From Torpedo marmorata (lineage: Eukaryota): DNA of 64,000 nt. The notes under the pieces are model-generated. The model was not told where the DNA came from. It saw nothing but the letters and a program-made list of their open reading frames with translations, and searched no databases. Shown here one piece after another: positions 2,792 to 34,676 of the stretch. Each line of letters begins with the position of its first letter. The stretch's first letter is position 1. Position numbers and translations under genes: made by a program. The stretch spans positions 67,332,001 to 67,396,000 of the forward strand of contig OZ360238.1 of the NCBI GenBank assembly GCA_977017645.1, read 5' to 3'.

Positions 2792-3510
2792 TTGCAAAAG
2801 AAGCGTGGTGCCCCTCCCCCTCAGGGTGCCCAGCGCGCAGGTGATTGACAGTTTTCATGGCCAAACCCGACTGGGAGAATGGGACACATGGTGGCGATTG
2901 GCCTGGAGGAGGGTCCAAGATAGTGACAGGTTTCCGAAGTCGAGCATTGGTGGAAGATGGGGAGCGGGGATGAGTGGGTGGGCGCTGTGTGTGATGATGT
3001 CATTACGGGAGATCACGTAGTTTAGTTGCAGTTCATGTATTCTTTTTAAGGCGGGCGAGATGGAACAGTTTCTGCACCGCTTTGCATTGTGGGTAAAAAC
3101 ACTGACATCTCTCTTGCTGTGCCCCATGTTAAGAATTCTGCTCTGGCAGCACTGCACCCCTGTGATGGGTGGATCCAGGACTAACGCGAGCCCATATTGA
3201 CATTGATGTACCAGTGGTTGTGACGGGCCCCCTTACCTTCTGGGCCCCTCGGCTTCAGCCTACTCAGCCTAATGGTTAATCCACCACTGGACAGAGATAG
3301 ATTCTTTTGGCAGTAATTAATGTTTTTCATGCTATTTAAATAACAGCTTCCATTAAGATGACACCTTAGATAAAGCAAAATTTGCTGAGGTACTTCACAG
3401 GAGCTCTGTCAAATAAAAACAAAACTGATGGTACATAGTGAGATATTTGAGCACATGATGTAAAATGGTCAAGGTGTTTCAATTTAACATCGGAGAGTTG
3501 GAAACATTTA

Positions 3511-4106
3511 TATTACGGTGACTTCGATCCAACAATAGTCACCTGGAGGCTAAGTGAGATACTTGTCTTTGACGCGTTTTAATTAATTTACTAACAAAGT
3601 CCAATATGTTCAAAACCTTTATTTACACACGTGACTTGCAGTAATCTTCAATGACTTTAATATAAACAGTTCTTGTAAACGATGTATGATGATTTTCTTT
3701 AAATGATTCTTCAAACAATTCCAAAACGATATGAAACGATGTAAAACGATGTAAAAAGTTATAAAACGCTGTAAAGACGGTCAATAAAGATGTGGAGACC
3801 TCACTCACCCTCCTAACATCTCCATCTTTCCTTTATTCTATTCCTTTCCTATTCTACCCGATTCGCGCATGCTCCGTCGCTCCCCTAACACTGCGCACCC
3901 TCCACCGCGCACACTACATCTCCCAGACTGCACCGCGCACAATGACGTCACTCCAAACTGCGCATGCGCCCGTCGGCACTCCAGCGCATGTGCAGAGCAC
4001 AGAACGGGCCGAGAACGGCCCACAGACAACGCGAGCGCTCCGAACGGGCCGACGAGACATCGGAGCGCCGCAACAATGGTAAGTTAACGAGCCTACGGCT
4101 CTTACA
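3511..4106 (-). repeat. BEL 3' LTR
   Basis: Direct repeat of 8906-9501; reads TGTAAG...GTAATA on the minus strand; internal AAACGATGTA repeats and a CpG-rich segment. Confidence 0.95.
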
Positions 4107-4314
4107 CCGGCCCCTAATTATTATAATTAGACGTAATGTCTTGAATAATAATTACACTATAAATTATAAATAACAATAACCATAACATTCAAACAATACA
4201 AATCTTCTTTCTTCCTTCTTCATAAACCCAGAGTTTACCATAACTCTGAATCAACAAAAGTCTGTAACCTGTGAAATATACAACAACAAATAAAGTCAGT
4301 TTATGTTTATCAAA

Positions 4315-4495
4315 GTTCCTCTGTCTCCAACAAAAGACAGACCTTGTTAATAGGTCTGTTTAGAAAACCAGTCTTAGCTTTAATTCACACTTGACGCACA
4401 AGTCCTCTTTTGTCTTGAAAAGTCTCAATAATTTTTCCAAATAACCAGGAGTTTCTTGAAGTCGAATTATCCATAATAATCACAATGTCTCTTTA
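4315..4495 (-). pseudogene. Remnant of the BEL post-integrase C-terminal domain (DUF5641-like)
   Basis: DIVIIMDNSTSRNSWLFGKIIETFQDKRGLVRQV*IKAKTGFLNRPINKVCLLLE; internal stop; lies downstream of the ORF stop at 4530. Confidence 0.8.
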
Positions 4496-4529
4496 AAGCT
4501 CTTTTATCTCCATAATCTGAGTTAAAACG

Positions 4530-6011
4530 TCAACCAGTAAACCTCAAATCTTCCTCAGACAAAATAGATACAGTTTTTCTTTTGAATTTAACACAAGGCA
4601 CTTCTTCAGCATGTCGTTTCACTTTATTCCTTTCTTCAGTATTCCATTTCTCATGTGAAGAATTTAAACTCTTAGGATTAGAATTTGAATATTTATTTGA
4701 TCCTTTCGATTTTAAACAGGTCTGTTTAAACACTCTGGTTTCTATGGCTCTTTCCTGCAATTCTAAATCCAATTTTGCAACTTTCAATTCAGTCTCAGTT
4801 CTTTCCGAGAAATTAATAATTTGATCTGAAGTCAAAATATCATGTGATACGTTGATATTTTCATTGTCAATCCTGTTGCGACAAACTTGAAATTTTTTAA
4901 TTTCTTCATCTTGTTTGTTACATTTCTGCAATGCAATATCACATTCTTTCTGCATTGTTAATTGTTGAACATTCAATTTACATTCTTGATTGGTTTTTAA
5001 AGTCAACTGTTTTGTGTTATTAACCAATAACTTGTTCTCTTTTAAAACATTAATCTCTTCCTCCAACCTTTTACATTTTGATAATGCTGAATCTCTTTCC
5101 TCAATAACTGTATTCATTTCTTCAGCAGTTATTCTTTTCTTCCGCTTTCTGACTTTGCGAGTTTTATTTACAATTAAATCTTTCTGTTTACTGTTTTCTT
5201 GATTATCTAATATTTCCAATTCCCCTTTCAACATTTTGTTCTCTGGATTCAATTGCATTAAATTATCATTCACATTATTCTTTATTCCATCAGCACAATT
5301 TTCTGTGTTCTCCAGTTTTACATCACATTGTAACCTTTCTTCATTAGCTTTGTCTGTTGTAATCTCTGAACTACAAAATCTACATTCAGATTTGTTTTCA
5401 GTCACTTGTTTTATTCCTGTATCTGATTCAATTACACATGAATAATCAATAGTATTATTTGCAACATCTTCTAATACTTCACTTTCATCTATTTCTGACG
5501 AAATTAATTCTTTCAATGTTGTTTTAAATACCATTGATTTATTTTCACATTGATCTGTTTTCTTTTCTTCAAAAGTGATTTTCTTATTCACAGTTTTTTG
5601 CTCTTCGCTTAACTCTTCAACTTTCACAACCGAAATTCTATTAATATTTATCGCTACCTGTTCCTGAGCAATATCATTATTTCTTTCCATTGGTCCATTG
5701 ATTGTCCAACCAAGTATGGTTTTAACAGCATAAGGTCCATTCCTTTTACTCTCTATTACTTCTTTTGGTACCAAAATCTTTGGCACATCTGAACCAATCA
5801 GCATTTCTATCTCAGAATTAATTTCAGGTAAATAAACCTTCCACAGATAAGCTAAATGATGGATATCCCTTTGATGAGGAATATTTCCTTCATTCACAGG
5901 CATAGTCTTCTGAGTATATACACTTGGAAGATCACAAAAAATTTTGTCATCCAATCCAGCAACCTCTAAGCCTGAAACAATGTTAGTTTCAACAACCTTT
6001 TCTTGTCCCAT
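4530..6011 (-). CDS. BEL protease C-terminal part fused to an acidic linker and a MIPOL1-like coiled coil (493 aa)
   Basis: N-terminal LIGSDVP...GPYAVKTILGWTINGP is the BEL protease tail; no YxDD, RNaseH or DDE motifs; NPENKML...RITAEEMNTVIEERDSALSKCKRLEEEI resembles recalled vertebrate MIPOL1. Confidence 0.8.
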   Translation of the reverse strand: MGQEKVVETNIVSGLEVAGLDDKIFCDLPSVYTQKTMPVNEGNIPHQRDIHHLAYLWKVYLPEINSEIEMLIGSDVPKILVPKEVIESKRNGPYAVKTILGWTINGPMERNNDIAQEQVAININRISVVKVEELSEEQKTVNKKITFEEKKTDQCENKSMVFKTTLKELISSEIDESEVLEDVANNTIDYSCVIESDTGIKQVTENKSECRFCSSEITTDKANEERLQCDVKLENTENCADGIKNNVNDNLMQLNPENKMLKGELEILDNQENSKQKDLIVNKTRKVRKRKKRITAEEMNTVIEERDSALSKCKRLEEEINVLKENKLLVNNTKQLTLKTNQECKLNVQQLTMQKECDIALQKCNKQDEEIKKFQVCRNRIDNENINVSHDILTSDQIINFSERTETELKVAKLDLELQERAIETRVFKQTCLKSKGSNKYSNSNPKSLNSSHEKWNTEERNKVKRHAEEVPCVKFKRKTVSILSEEDLRFTG

Positions 6012-8517
6012 GGTTTTTTAACATAATTCTTGATCTTTTTCCTTGAATATTAAGTTTATTCATTAGTCCTTCCGTGCAAAAAGATGCAGTGCTGCCTGGG
6101 TCTAAAAATGCATATGTGTTTACTATTACATCCCCTTTCTTGGCCTTGACTTGTACAGGCACTATTGAAAGTTTGCAGTTATTCACCCCGGCCCCAGTAA
6201 GACCACTTGTCTGAACCGAGGTTATAACATTATTTTCTGTTGTTTCCTTTGTTTCTGTTTGCTCCTTTTCCAATTCCTTGTTTCTGTTATGGATATGCAA
6301 AATTCTAGGATGTTTCAAATTGCATATGTTACAATTAATTCGCTTCTCGAAGTTTTTACTGATGTGCCCTTTACACAGACAGCTAAAACATATTCCATTT
6401 TCCTTTAAGAAAGCGATCTTTTCCTTATGTTCCTTCTTTTCCAATCGTAAACACATTTCCAAAGCATGTCCACCTTTACAGAACAAACAACTCTTTTCAT
6501 TAGGCAAACTTTCCTTTTCCTTATTTACTTTGTCATTTTCTTTACTTATAACTTGCACATTAGTAGCAAAAGTACTCCTTTTTAATTTCGGACTAGACTG
6601 TGTGTTAGACTTCTTTACATCTTTGCCCATTGAATTATCTCTGGTATTTCCATATAGTGGATCTGTTTCAACGTACACTTGTCGTTCAAGAAAATTTACC
6701 AAATCCTTTAAGGCAATTTTTCGACCATAATTTATTTGTAAATCACAAGCCAAATTTCTCCATCTATCCCATAACTTGTAAGATAATTTTTCTAAGATGA
6801 TTCGCATATTACTATGCACTTCAAGCTCACGAATATTATCGATTTCTTCCATAGCATTACAACATCCTCTTAAAAACAAATTATATTCTTGCAGAGCCTT
6901 TACATCATTTTGTTTTATTGATGTCCATTTAAGAGCTTTATCCATATAAGCTAAAGCAATTCGATGTTTGTTGCCAAAATATTGTTCCAATAAAGCCTTA
7001 GCTTTGTCTAATCCTCTTTTTGAAGACATTTGTTTACAACTCTTTACCAGTTCTTTTGGATGTCCCTTTGTGAACATTTCCAAATAATAAAGACATTCAT
7101 CACGATCTTGGCATTTATCTTCAATATTGTGTTTGAAAGATCTCATAAATGATTGATATTGAAGTGGATCACCATCAAAAGTTTGTATCTCTTTCTTGGG
7201 TAAAGAAGAGAGAGACTGTAACTGAAACAATGATGCAGCAATTTCATTTTGTCTTTCCTTGGACGACAATACATTGCTCTGTTCACCGTCTCTTGTTGCA
7301 TGCAATGTATCTGGAAACCTCACTGGTGTAGTTTCTTCCATATTTCTGATGCTTGACTCATATAACAAAGAAGCTGCTTCGTTCGACTGAACCCAAGCCG
7401 CAGCTTTGCTTTCAGATGTTACTATTGGTACATGTGACTCGATACCAATATGCTCTTGAAAGGTTTGTCCTTGTATATGTAAGTTTTGTATCCTTGGTTC
7501 TAAAATATCTATCCTTTTGGTTGGTTTCTTTTCCTGTGACTCCTTTTTTAAATATGACCTTTTATTATCAGACAATTTAGATAATTTACTGCTAGCACCA
7601 GATACCATTGAGCCTTTTATTGCTTTCTTTTTTGCCTTGGCAATAGCAATGTTTGCTTCCAGCTCCTGCTTTTCTTTTCTCTGCCTTAGCTGCTCCTTCT
7701 CTTGTCTTAGCTGCTCCATTAGCTGCTTCTCATTTTGTCTTAGCTGCTCCTCCTCTTGTCTTAGCTGCTCCTTTAGCTGCTTCTCATTTTGTCTTATCTG
7801 CTCCTCCTTTTGTCTTAGCTGCTCCTTTAGCTGCTTCTCATTTTGTCTTATCTGCTCCTCCTTTTGTCTTAGCTGCTCCTTTAGCTGCACCTCCTTTTGT
7901 CTTATCTGCTCCTCCTTTTGTTCTAAAATATGTTTCTCCTTAAGCATTTTTTGTTGTGCAAAAAGTGTGGCCAAGTCAACTTCAATCTTTGTATGTGACG
8001 ATGCAGAACTTGAAGTACGAGAAACTCTGGAGCTCGAACCAGAACTTCTTTTGCTTCTCCTGCTTTCAGCATTTGAGACACTGTCACTTGCTTGTATTTC
8101 GTCCTGCAGTTCATATGTTGTCTTCATACTTACCTCTTTATCCAATTCGAATTGTATATCCTTTGCATCTTCAATCACTTTAATTTCTTCAACATTTGGT
8201 GACACAATTTCAGCCATTTCCACGTTATCTTCTTGTTCAACTAATGAAGCTGCCTCTTCATCCTTTGCCTGCTTCAATCTTTCGATAAGAGCCCTTTTAT
8301 TTCCACTTATGTCCTTTTTCAGTCGCTTCAATTCTTCTTTAATATCCGAAACCTTCATGTCTTCAATACGTTGGTCCTCAACAGCAACATCAGCGGTTGC
8401 TGCGTCAGCTGCTGATACATCAGTAGCTGCTGTATCAGAGGCTGCTGCGGCCATTTTACTCGTCTTGTTCCTCTTTCCTTCAAGCATACACAACACTAGC
8501 CAAACAACAGTCCCCAA
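5989..8517 (-). CDS. BEL gag-protease: SAP-like N-terminus, heptad repeats, DUF1759-like capsid, Zn knuckles, aspartic protease
   Basis: FDGDPLQYQSF capsid motif; CLFCKGGHALEMC, CFSCLCKGH and CNICNLKHPRILH knuckles; YAFLDPGS active site; frameshift at an A6 run near 6013-6018. Confidence 0.9.
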   Translation of the reverse strand: MGTVVWLVLCMLEGKRNKTSKMAAAASDTAATDVSAADAATADVAVEDQRIEDMKVSDIKEELKRLKKDISGNKRALIERLKQAKDEEAASLVEQEDNVEMAEIVSPNVEEIKVIEDAKDIQFELDKEVSMKTTYELQDEIQASDSVSNAESRRSKRSSGSSSRVSRTSSSASSHTKIEVDLATLFAQQKMLKEKHILEQKEEQIRQKEVQLKEQLRQKEEQIRQNEKQLKEQLRQKEEQIRQNEKQLKEQLRQEEEQLRQNEKQLMEQLRQEKEQLRQRKEKQELEANIAIAKAKKKAIKGSMVSGASSKLSKLSDNKRSYLKKESQEKKPTKRIDILEPRIQNLHIQGQTFQEHIGIESHVPIVTSESKAAAWVQSNEAASLLYESSIRNMEETTPVRFPDTLHATRDGEQSNVLSSKERQNEIAASLFQLQSLSSLPKKEIQTFDGDPLQYQSFMRSFKHNIEDKCQDRDECLYYLEMFTKGHPKELVKSCKQMSSKRGLDKAKALLEQYFGNKHRIALAYMDKALKWTSIKQNDVKALQEYNLFLRGCCNAMEEIDNIRELEVHSNMRIILEKLSYKLWDRWRNLACDLQINYGRKIALKDLVNFLERQVYVETDPLYGNTRDNSMGKDVKKSNTQSSPKLKRSTFATNVQVISKENDKVNKEKESLPNEKSCLFCKGGHALEMCLRLEKKEHKEKIAFLKENGICFSCLCKGHISKNFEKRINCNICNLKHPRILHIHNRNKELEKEQTETKETTENNVITSVQTSGLTGAGVNNCKLSIVPVQVKAKKGDVIVNTYAFLDPGSTASFCTEGLMNKLNIQGKRSRIMLKNHGTRKGC
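7680..7920 (-). repeat. Coding tandem repeat in gag (EQLRQ/EQIRQ coiled-coil units)
   Basis: Repeated TTGTCTTA(G/T)CTGCTCCT units on the + strand. Confidence 0.9.
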
Positions 8518-8905
8518 TGGACCAGCGGCAGCAATTCCAATCTGTGTTCTTACTTGCTAAAGATACACAGAAGGAGTCCACAGACTTATGCCTACCACTT
8601 CAAATGACTGTAATGTGCTGCTATCCACAAACGAGTTTCAACCACAACATCCGTCAATAATATCACTAATTTTCCAAAAATAGTTTCTCCAACGTATTTA
8701 TAGGACACTTTACTATAAGATTTGAAGCTTTAAATCCCTCTCTGGCTGTTATTCATGGCAGATGGATGTGGATTACAAACTGCCCCCAACTCGAGGCATC
8801 TCCAAGATGGCCACCATTTTATATATCAGTCCAAAGCACAGAGAGTTTTTTCTATCTTCTTTCTTTCAAACTTCTGTTCCAAAACAGCCAGCTCTTTATT
8901 GACTA

Positions 8906-9501
8906 TATTACGGTGACTTCGATCCAACAATAGTCACCTGGAGGCTAAGTGAGTTACTTGTCTTTGACGCGTTTTAATTAATTTACTAACAAAGTCCAAT
9001 ATGTTCAAAACCTTTATTTACATACGTGACTTGCAGTAATCTTCAATGACTTTAATATAAACAGTTCTTGTAAACGATGTATGATGATTTTCTTTAAATG
9101 ATTCTTTAAACAATTCCAAAACGATATGAAACGATGTAAAACGATGTAAAAAGTTATAAAACGCTGTAAAAACGGTCAATAAAGATGTGGAGACCTCACT
9201 CACCCTCCTAACATCTCCATCTTTCCTTTATTCTATTCCTTTCCTATTCTACCCGATTCGCGCATGCTCCGTCGCTCCCCTAACACTGCGCACCCTCCAC
9301 CGCGCACACTACATCTCCCAGACTGCACCGCGCACAATGACGTCACTCCAAACTGCGCATGCGCCCGTCGGCACTCCAGCGCATGCGCAGAGCACAGAAC
9401 GGGCCGAGAACGGCCCACAGACAACGCGAGCGCTCCGAACGGGCCGACGAGACATCGGAGCGCCGCAACAATGGTAAGTTAACGAGCCTACGGCTCTTAC
9501 A
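8906..9501 (-). repeat. BEL 5' LTR
   Basis: Direct repeat of 3511-4106; followed on the minus strand by TAGTCAATAAAG. Confidence 0.95.
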
Positions 9502-10999
9502 ATTTAGAAAGAGAACTTTAGTGTAAAATATACTTAAATTGAATGCAAAAGCCCTAGATTGGGCAGTTTATCAGTGAGGTACAGATGAAATGAGGCTCAT
9601 GGAGGAGACTGCTGACTTTTGCATTCGATAATAAATATATGGATGGCAAAGTTCAAAGTTCAAATTTATTGTCAGAGTACATACATGACATGACATAACA
9701 TACAACCCTGGGATTCTTTTACCTGTGGGCCCGGCAGAATTTCTACTTATCAGTCACTGTAAACTGTACTCAAGAAGAAAGATATGTATACAAAAGAGAG
9801 AAATGTAAGCAAAGAAAGAAATGTGAACAAACCGACTGTGCAAATACAGGAAAATAAATATTCAGTAATAAATAATGAGCAAAGTAAGAGTCCCTAAATG
9901 AATCTGTTGTTTAGGAGTCTGATGGTTGAGGGGTAGCAACCATCAGACTCTTGTGCCTGAACCTGGTGGTACAAGTCCTGTGGCACCGATAGCTCTTTCC
10001 TGACGGCAGCAGTGAGAACAGAGCATGTCCTGGGAAGTGTGGATCCTTAATGATTGCTGCTGCTTTCCATCAGCAACATTCCCTGTAGATGTTCTCAATG
10101 GTGGGGAGAGTTTTGCCTGTGATGTACTGGGCTGTGTCCACTACCTTTTGCAGGGCTTTCCACTCAGAGGAAATTGGTCCCCCCATACCAGGCCGTGATG
10201 CAGCCGGTCAACACACTTTCCACTACACTTCTGCAGATGTTTGCCGAGGTTTCCGATGACATACCGAACCTCCACAAACTCCTGAGGAAGTAGAGGCGCT
10301 GACGTGCTTTCCTCACGATGACATTAGTATGTTAGGTCCAGGAAAGGTCCTCTGAGATTGTGACTCCCAGGCTCACCCTCTCCACCTCTGATCTCCCAAT
10401 GATCACTGGATTGTACCTCTGGTTTTCCCTTCCTGAAGTCAAAAATCAGCTCCTTGGTTTTGGTGATGTTGTGTGCGAGGTTGTTAGTACAGCATTCAGC
10501 CACGTTTTCAATCTCCCTTCTGTATGCTGACTCATCACCCCTTCATATACAACCCACTTCCGTGGTATCATCAGCAAATTTGTAGATGGTATTGTTGTCG
10601 TACCAAGCCACACAGTCATAGATGTAAAGCAAGTAGACCAGGGGGCTAAGTACACTCCCTGTGGTGCTCCAGTGCAGATGGAGATTGTGGAGATGGGTTT
10701 TTTTCCTATCCGCACTGACTGGGGTCTGGAGGGGAGGAAATCCAGGATCCAATTGTACAGTGAGTTATTGAGGCCCAGGTCTTGGATTTTTCTGATCTGT
10801 TTTGAGGGGGTGATGGTGTTGAATGCTGAACTGTGGTCAATATAGAGTAGTGATTCCCAAAGTGGGCGGTGGAAAGATCCAAGGGGGCCGTGAGGAAAAA
10901 GGGAGCGGTCAGGGGACATTGAGGAAAAAGGGGGCGGTCTGAACGTTTGTTTGTATCTTGGTTACGTGGTCTAGGATATTGGGCCTCGAAATTCCCGGC

Positions 11000-12419: not shown

Positions 12420-12545
12420 TAAGCGGAACTTTTGAAAACGTTTTGAAGAGCAGCTGCGCGGCAAGCCGCGAGCCAGCGTTCAATCGGAGGGCGTCCCGTG
12501 TTCCATTGGAATGGCAGGGAATGGTCTGTGGGATCCGATTGGGAG
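12420..12545 (+). promoter_or_regulatory. Captured MASTL promoter/5' UTR with two CHR-like TTTGAA motifs
   Basis: TTTGAA at 12431 and 12442, CGGAA ETS-like core, CpG-rich, directly upstream of the kinase ATG. Confidence 0.5.
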
Positions 12546-12731
12546 ATGGAGGTTCCCAGCACCGATGACGCTAGTCCTGCCGTCCCGTACAGGAATGTGA
12601 AGGCAATCAAGGTGCCGGCTGCCCCCAGCATCGAGGACTTCATTATTATCCAACCCATCAGCCCTGGGGCATTCGGTAAAGTGTACCTGGCTCGGAAAAA
12701 ACACCCCGAGAATAAGGTGTATGCAGTCAAG
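12546..12731 (+). pseudogene. MASTL: Captured MASTL/Greatwall kinase exon 1 (62 codons)
   Basis: [62 protein letters not shown] matches recalled Greatwall [26 protein letters not shown]...LYAVK; ends at donor-like GCAAGT; no further kinase exons seen. Confidence 0.88.
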
Positions 12732-13074
12732 GCAAGTACTGGATTTGGTGGTCAGCTGAAATACGATAGCTGAAGATTTACTGTAATCAAGACAAAACGA
12801 GCCACGTTATGTCTTTTGGTGTTCTAGTGCAGAAAGATTGTAATTTTCACGTGACATTTGGGCATGTGTAGGCGTGCTTGGTGGCTGTGGGGCAGAACTC
12901 GCTCGTCCACAGCGGGCCTGTGGTCCTCGCGATTGATCCTGCGATGGGACCACTTTGTTGGGCAGCGAGGCCGGACCATCCCACCCGCTCTGCTCACCAA
13001 GCCTCCCGGCCCAGTCATCCTACCCGGCGGGGATGGGTCTGTGTTTGAAGTGAAATCAAGCACATTAGAGTCAA

Positions 13075-34480: not shown

Positions 34481-34676
34481 AAGGTAAAGGTTCCATTATT
34501 GTCACGTAATACTACATTTAGAATGAAACTACATGAAATTCTTTAACTTTGTCTACCGTAAGGAAGACAGTCGCTACTTTGTCCAGCGCCCCTCACAGAA
34601 ATGAGGCCCCAGTGAGGAACGAACTCGCAACCCCTGATTTACAAGACCAGTGCTCTAACCACTGAGCTATGGAGGC
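34481..34676 (-). mobile_element. SINE-like chimera: complete tRNA-Thr head joined to the body/tail of the 5S-derived SINE
   Basis: tRNA followed by TTTCTGTGAGGGGCGCTGGACAAAGT...ACGTGACAATAATGGAACCTTTACCTT; inserted in a LINE. Confidence 0.8.
34604..34676 (-). tRNA. tRNA-Thr(TGT) retrocopy/pseudogene
   Basis: 73 nt GCCTCCATAGCTCAGTGGTTAGAGCACTGGTCTTGTAAATCAGGGGTTGCGAGTTCGTTCCTCACTGGGGCCT; cloverleaf with anticodon TGT; one acceptor-stem mismatch. Confidence 0.85.

Follow-up and report, generated by a model that had tools for sequence, protein, structure and literature searches.

A non-autonomous BEL/Pao retrotransposon of Torpedo marmorata with pieces of three host genes in place of pol, one of them most likely copied from a circular RNA

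The window analysed here, a stretch of 64,000 nucleotides from the 6.2-Gb assembly of Torpedo marmorata, contains a BEL/Pao LTR retrotransposon in which a long open frame of host origin stands where pol would be expected. Such an element raises three questions, namely which host sequences were captured, by what route they entered the element, and what has kept them open since.

Structure of the element and size of the family

The non-autonomous element occupies positions 3511–9501 of the window on the minus strand, as do all of its features given below. It is bounded by a 5′ LTR (8906–9501) and a 3′ LTR (3511–4106) of 596 nt, which are 99% alike (5 mismatches in 596 nt), and by a 5-bp target site duplication, ATTTA, on both flanks (9502–9506 and 3506–3510), in agreement with the initial annotation. 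The LTRs start with TG and end with TA instead of the usual CA, and the same ends are seen in 5/5 of the sister copies shown. The gag ORF (5989–8454) encodes a SAP N-terminus, a coiled-coil repeat, a capsid-like region, Cys/His knuckles, and the start of the aspartic protease (FLDPGS at 6108). The SAP domain lies at about 8266–8367 and is also present in a pol-bearing sister, L010, while the Q/E/K/L coiled coil is encoded by a tandem 54-nt (21+21+12) repeat at 7628–7951. A search of the PDB with the gag SAP domain gave a generic SAP match only, and SAFB/SLTM, considered as a source of this domain, received no support, as residues 1–130 gave no match with E≤0.01 among 1110 candidates.

The C-terminal half of the protease (5700–6017), which also marks the approximate crossover between backbone and cassette, is followed by about 350 further open codons of cargo. 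In the window copy the frames 5989–8556 and 4530–6017 differ, such that a frameshift near 6000–6017 parts gag-protease from the cargo; the locus L019 is broken at the same place. Consequently, the single gag-protease ORF that had been described as continuing into the insert does not exist in this copy. Among 18 sister loci that were retrieved with cargo, 4 contain a single ORF of 1333–1341 codons. The absence of RT, RNase H and integrase families from both window ORFs was confirmed by a domain search, and a Pfam search of the 495-residue frame at 4530–6017 gave no match. Downstream of the cargo lies a DUF5641 remnant (4388–4492), which represents the integrase tail and falls slightly short of the curated cut-off (E 1e-4). 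It is followed by a polypurine tract (4107–4117) ahead of the 3′ LTR, and both features are as previously proposed. No env was seen, and there is no room for one between the cargo and the polypurine tract.

Far from being unique to the window copy, a possibility that the initial annotation had raised, the insert belongs to a huge family on two backbones, referred to here as young (that of the window copy) and older. A search with the insert protein returned 38,148 first-look candidates, a figure not equal to the number of copies; the best 150 scored are 97–100% identical, and 37 of these matches lie in frames of at least 1200 codons. Four young copies occur within 320 kb that were fetched for another reason, inside the introns of host MIPOL1 (C40:64339900-64496000), which extrapolates to roughly 20,000–200,000 copies, and the young family probably numbers in the tens of thousands. 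By rough extrapolation, this number of copies of ~6 kb may total hundreds of megabases of the assembly. The LTR pairs of 12 sister loci are 95.9–99.7% alike, indicating that the insertions are recent and were not simultaneous. Contigs that resemble the element and match its cargo are present under all three organism codes examined. In these animals, the family will confuse both annotation and circRNA calling wherever BRCA1, MIPOL1, or Elongin A is concerned.

The proposal of recent transposition in trans agrees with this recent spread and with the presence of a pol-bearing partner. Two loci, L010 and L123, share the window backbone and carry RT and RNase H, with integrase in L123. The domains scored are DUF1759 and Peptidase_A17 in L010, which is 95% identical in DNA to the LTR-gag-protease part of the window element, and RVT_1, Peptidase_A17, rve, and DUF5641 in L123. 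The window element returns to this pol-bearing backbone at 4491. A search with the partner pol gave 4467 first-look candidates, the best 40 at 98–100%. Nine near-identical pol-bearing copies, 42–92 kb apart, are found at C45:16236138-16597394, which suggests a large tandem segmental array.

Composition of the cargo and the exon order of MIPOL1

The insert was initially read as MIPOL1. MIPOL1 is indeed present, but pieces of BRCA1 and Elongin A were captured as well. The BRCA1 piece (5183–5585) has 79% nucleotide identity to host BRCA1 on C61 and spans the acceptor of the large BRCA1 exon; residues 145–283 of the 495-residue frame are 61% identical to Narcine BRCA1 (E 6e-44). The peptide NPENKMLKGEL, previously taken as the start of MIPOL1, is present in the 495-codon frame and belongs to this BRCA1 stretch, and the MIPOL1 portion of the cargo begins at DLIV. 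MIPOL1 exons f (3′ part), g, and h, spliced, lie at 4876–5180 and are followed downstream by exons b and c at 4731–4875, with the back-splice junction at about 4875. The Elongin A piece (4530–4720) completes the frame, which ends before the BC-box and Elongin_A domain kept by older copies. The match to MIPOL1 is far above chance, as had been anticipated: a profile search of 1.84 billion proteins gave 37 matches with E≤0.001, the best of them at 1e-23, and the window DNA is 76–89% identical to five host MIPOL1 exons. Ten of the matches were looked up, of which 8 are named MIPOL1 by their source, 1 clusters with a MIPOL1-named member, and 1 is unnamed. In the ESM Atlas, MIPOL1 was top-ranked at 0.95, which serves as a lead only, and the Elongin A piece gave nothing.

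The older family was discovered by a search with shark MIPOL1. Its gag, protease, and cargo are 75–82% identical to those of the window element, and the LTRs barely align. Because the older cargo is much closer to the host (89–98% across the pieces), the remaining captured pieces could be named. BRCA1 accounts for the upstream piece (E 2e-75; 89–93% nucleotide identity to the host exon on C61). The Elongin A piece, which has a PDB match at E 8e-16, is 96–98% identical to one host exon on C41 and 90–96% identical to the next, the two being joined without the intron; a paralog on C25 was rejected as the donor (74–78% vs 96–98% for C41). The older copies (143 matches) continue in frame across what we take to be the BC-box region and into the Elongin_A Pfam domain, up to about three quarters of its length.

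The protease, BRCA1, MIPOL1, and Elongin A parts are joined in one frame in natural older copies (L053, L110, L118). The joins between captured gene pieces are not at splice sites, and that between BRCA1 and MIPOL1 shares only about 2 nt. Linkers lie beside the captured exons, with about 12 nt before BRCA1 and about 30 nt between MIPOL1 exon d and Elongin A (L108:6292-6326); the latter could be a fourth capture. The nearest listed relatives of host BRCA1 and MIPOL1 are those of Narcine (80–85%), which puts the host genome among the rays. Near the start of the large BRCA1 exon, 9 nt are kept in older element copies and missing from the host BRCA1 allele (L124, C61); the corresponding residues are present in Narcine BRCA1, so that the element has conserved an earlier state of the host gene. 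Residues 1–190 of a database Narcine BRCA1 isoform appear by eye to be retrotransposon gag-like rather than a RING domain, which is probably a gene-model artefact.

Host MIPOL1 on C40 has one copy of each exon, in the order a to i, over 320 kb, while the order in the element is f-g-h followed by b-c-d. In older copies the piece begins with the last 124 nt of f, continues with g, h, b, and c, and stops about 20 nt into d; its identity to the host is 92–97%. Alignment to the host locus, a check that the initial annotation had suggested, shows that the joins f/g, g/h, b/c, and c/d are exact ordinary splices. At the h/b join, the exon h donor is linked base-exactly to the exon b acceptor, which lies about 206 kb upstream in the host. 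Exon h is directly followed by exon b in 20/20 of the older loci that retain exon h (22 examined), and the window copy is ungapped across the junction (73/104 nt identical). Together, exons b–h comprise 780 nt with no stop in a full turn, and all seven are flanked by AG..GT; a b–h circle could thus be copied in frame from any entry point. Only b, c, d, f, g, and h match the captured MIPOL1, and sequence of exon a or i is absent from it. An exon duplication in the present host gene is ruled out by the single copy of each exon in normal order. As for the earlier claim that a spliced MIPOL1 mRNA was transduced, the splicing stands, and the template was most likely a circular rather than a linear RNA, a conclusion that we draw from the junction sequence with considerable confidence.

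The same scrambled order could in principle have arisen from a linear template, either through a backward jump of reverse transcriptase at microhomology or from a trans-spliced or exon-repeated transcript. Microhomology of 3 nt is present at the h-to-b join, where a template switch could therefore have produced an identical sequence, and the other joins of the element are template switches with little microhomology. Non-colinear joins can also have other causes, as the relevant passages of PMC4897178 point out. The two ends fall exactly on splice sites, however, which is the case for only 3/6644 backward joins that keep the frame and share 3 nt or more of microhomology (about 0.05%), and the captured stretch lies wholly within exons b–h, without exon a or i. 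Taken together, these findings make an origin without a circle improbable, although a trans-spliced linear template would be compatible with the sequence. Contigs from runs guessed to be RNA have the normal host order, in which exon b is preceded by a and exon h is followed by i; they also contain the exit point of BRCA1 and the entry point of Elongin A. Among the datasets listed, none is recorded as RNA. Contigs that span the h–b junction differ at many positions and seem to derive from the element; among the matches listed (with 2282 further matches beyond these), none is a host-like contig spanning the junction, which is evidence neither way. A junction-spanning query matched 51 database proteins, none covering more than 65% of the query. 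A human MIPOL1 circRNA is listed in a table of PMC8783515, from which it is known here by its id alone. If the template was circular, the element constitutes the fossil record of one particular circular RNA of a cartilaginous fish, and its older copies differ from the host gene by only 4–7%. In one older copy (L107:6836-7945) the MIPOL1 segment including the junction is repeated in tandem, in frame, which looks like a later local duplication.

Proposed transfer between backbones and selection on the cargo

The two families differ in how far their parts have diverged. Between old and young copies, the silent divergence of the cargo (dS 0.30–0.35) is about half that of gag and protease (dS 0.53–0.79), with omega values of 0.59–0.69 and 0.25–0.51, respectively. 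Furthermore, the young gag-protease has 93–99% identity to that of L010 up to codon ~940, at the protease end, and the identity falls thereafter. The simplest reading is that the cassette moved onto a newer backbone by two crossovers with loss of the 3′ BC-box region of Elongin A. The young family has lost the BC-box and about 400 nt of cargo, and its sub-groups have recurrent in-frame deletions of 24–45 nt.

The open frame of the cargo is under selection. Between the host exons and four young copies, 87–94 base changes are found in 151–155 MIPOL1 codons, with 0 stops against 5.3–5.6 expected when the changes are redistributed (P 0.001–0.003); for the whole cargo the corresponding figures are 0 and 11–13. 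Indels that distinguish young from old cargo in several copies (3, 24, 120, 81, 195, 3, and 3 nt) are all multiples of three. Among young copies, 4/5 of the shared indels are in frame vs 4/11 of the private ones, and the shared exception lies in the last codons. The absence of stops and the in-frame shared indels thus indicate that the frame is selected, with both stops and frameshifts purged from lineages that replicate, and the claim that the insert stays open is upheld. The insert had also been said to have become A-rich, but most of this property comes from the host exons, which have 40% A compared with 44% A in the young cargo.

Evidence for selection on the amino acids themselves is mixed. 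From host to young copies, 56 amino-acid changes are observed vs 57 expected, which is the neutral rate, and the kind of change is also neutral (BLOSUM P 0.49). The omega of the cargo on this branch is 0.6–1.0, with intervals spanning 1, while that of gag and protease is about 0.3. Variation among young copies was examined in 22 copies not picked by protein likeness, with uncorrected P values, as a shared-versus-private test on all 51 copies is biased by the retrieval of 29 of the 51 young loci through protein likeness. Cargo variants common to at least 3 copies include 27 synonymous changes vs 17.0 expected (P 0.003), or 21 vs 13.1 without CpG-type changes (P 0.009), an excess similar in size to that in gag. 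It is strongest in the MIPOL1 part (14 vs 8.1, P 0.012; without CpG-type changes 10 vs 5.9, P 0.04) and weaker for cargo variants in at least 2 copies (P 0.10). Private variants have a synonymous excess in gag-protease and none in the cargo. Consequently, the earlier suggestion that the fusion protein is maintained by selection holds in part: stops have been purged and shared variants are rich in synonymous changes, but amino-acid change from host to young copies was neutral.

The explanation that we consider probable as a whole combines a non-autonomous family, capture by template switching, a circular template, transfer of a cassette, and a frame-selected cargo that is mostly filler. The element would make its own gag and protease and borrow RT and integrase from a co-resident pol-bearing family. 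The host pieces that replace pol would have been acquired through template switching by reverse transcriptase to host RNAs carried in the particle. One of these may have been a 780-nt circular RNA of exons b–h, of which about three quarters would have been copied, from an entry point in exon f to an exit point in exon d. The cassette would then have been transferred by two crossovers, at the protease end and in the integrase tail, to a newer autonomous lineage and amplified there. Less certain is the function of the cargo, which may act as filler whose lack of stops allows translation to continue until about 420 nt or less from the 3′ LTR; such run-through might protect the RNA from nonsense-mediated decay, favour its packaging, or both, and the constraint on the peptide would be at most weak. 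Host coding sequence, and above all a stop-free circle, would offer a ready-made open frame for this purpose. The synonymous excess among shared young variants counts against filler alone, and a plain in-frame deletion of pol would likewise give a short open frame. Under the filler explanation, it is for the open frame that host coding sequence has been retained, through about 20% divergence and a switch of backbone, and a frame-selected cargo makes it testable why non-autonomous elements retain cargo.

Two other accounts of the cargo share the observation of an open frame and differ in its cause. The released BRCA1-MIPOL1-Elongin A polypeptide, tracing back to the same circular RNA and two mRNAs, may instead have a sequence-dependent job, a possibility that we regard as less likely but as a serious rival. 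HIV Vif recruits Elongin B/C and a cullin ligase, and in the older family the BC-box could do likewise, and the permuted MIPOL1 coiled coil of young copies might form an oligomerisation or scaffold arm on Gag. All three captures being in frame, the in-frame BC-box region and Elongin_A domain of older copies, the synonymous excess among shared young variants, which peaks in MIPOL1, and the survival of the cassette across the backbone change are consistent with such a job. It is opposed by the fact that amino-acid change along the long branch separating host and young copies was neutral, by a synonymous excess of private variants that lies in gag-protease and not in the cargo, and by the fact that the most abundant family does without the BC-box and about 400 nt of cargo, with sub-groups deleting 24–45 nt more. 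The most ambitious form of this idea seems rather unlikely: a circular RNA and two mRNAs would have furnished the element with a new protein arm, in which the BC-box came first, perhaps hijacking a ubiquitin ligase against silencing factors, and the permuted MIPOL1 coiled coil later became a working part of the polyprotein that aided spread to tens of thousands of copies. If true, the order of the MIPOL1 protein in the element exists only through back-splicing. The cargo might also be a neutral passenger whose open frame results from the choice of intact copies, since 29/51 young loci came by protein likeness and dN/dS against the host does not differ from 1. This is very improbable, as the 20% divergence from the host is common to all young copies and contains no stop, copies retrieved by DNA or found by chance in introns share the frame, breaks are scattered and mostly private, and shared indels are mostly in frame. 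Camouflage of the young family through likeness to host genes was considered and is unlikely at about 20% divergence from the host.

Relation to known elements and local surroundings

In acutely transforming retroviruses of the gag-onc type, pol is replaced in frame by spliced host sequence and a helper is needed. The ray element resembles these in having in-frame spliced host sequence for pol and in needing a partner, so the architecture of the analogy drawn in the initial annotation stands. The analogy does not extend to an effect on the host cell, as there is no evidence of one on cell growth. Additional differences from gag-onc retroviruses are that no env is seen, that spread is intragenomic in the germ line, and that three unrelated fragments were captured.

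The closest precedents are maize Bs1 and the circRNA-derived pseudogenes of mouse. The passages of PMC5131818 and PMC13317346 that concern maize Bs1 describe an LTR element with spliced pieces of three unlinked host genes in a hybrid ORF that has been re-retroposed, as is the case here. Bs1 is present in 1–5 copies, while the ray element probably reaches tens of thousands; unlike Bs1, the latter is a vertebrate BEL/Pao element that kept gag-protease, has one back-spliced piece, and occurs on two backbones (PMC5131818, PMC13317346). The relevant passages of Tan et al. 2016 (PMC5131818) describe LTR-mediated retroposition in animals, including one BEL case in mosquito, in which the internal ORF is replaced by partial mRNAs at microsimilarity. 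ORF replacement, multi-gene chimeras, and secondary retroposition as non-autonomous elements are common to that work and the ray element. The word 'circular' is absent from its main text, while the ray element has a back-spliced piece, and its passages on these chimeras describe no high-copy family or long-term selection on the frame, both of which are features of the ray element.

Genomic copies with a reversed exon-exon junction, as seen here, are described as circRNA-derived pseudogenes by Dong et al. 2016 (PMC4897178). The pertinent passages of that paper report 33 mouse circRFWD2 copies with LTR-rich flanks and term the mechanism mysterious, the link to LTRs being an enrichment only. In contrast to those copies, the junction in the ray lies inside a complete LTR element, between the protease and the integrase tail, in a frame-selected ORF. 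To the extent covered by these passages, template-switch capture, multi-gene chimeras and their secondary spread, and genomic circRNA copies with LTR-rich flanks were known already (PMC5131818, PMC13317346, PMC4897178). Searches of open-access papers turned up no description of an LTR element that is complete, frame-selected, and high-copy and has a back-splice junction within it; the family may be catalogued in sources beyond these, such as Repbase, Dfam, supplements, and subscription journals. The ray element offers a natural case for the question left by PMC4897178 and suggests that circular RNA can be converted to DNA through packaging and template switching by the reverse transcriptase of an LTR element.

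The surroundings of the element contain a few other features. A short frame at 12447–12773 on the plus strand matches the start of the Greatwall/MASTL kinase (E 2e-8) and is probably the first exon of a host MASTL gene neighbouring the element. ARAGORN identifies a tRNA-Thr(TGT) gene at 34603–34676 on the minus strand. Finally, a GC-rich inverted repeat (1926–2141 and 2276–2491), with 216-nt arms that are 94% complementary and 134 nt apart, is possibly a small DNA transposon.
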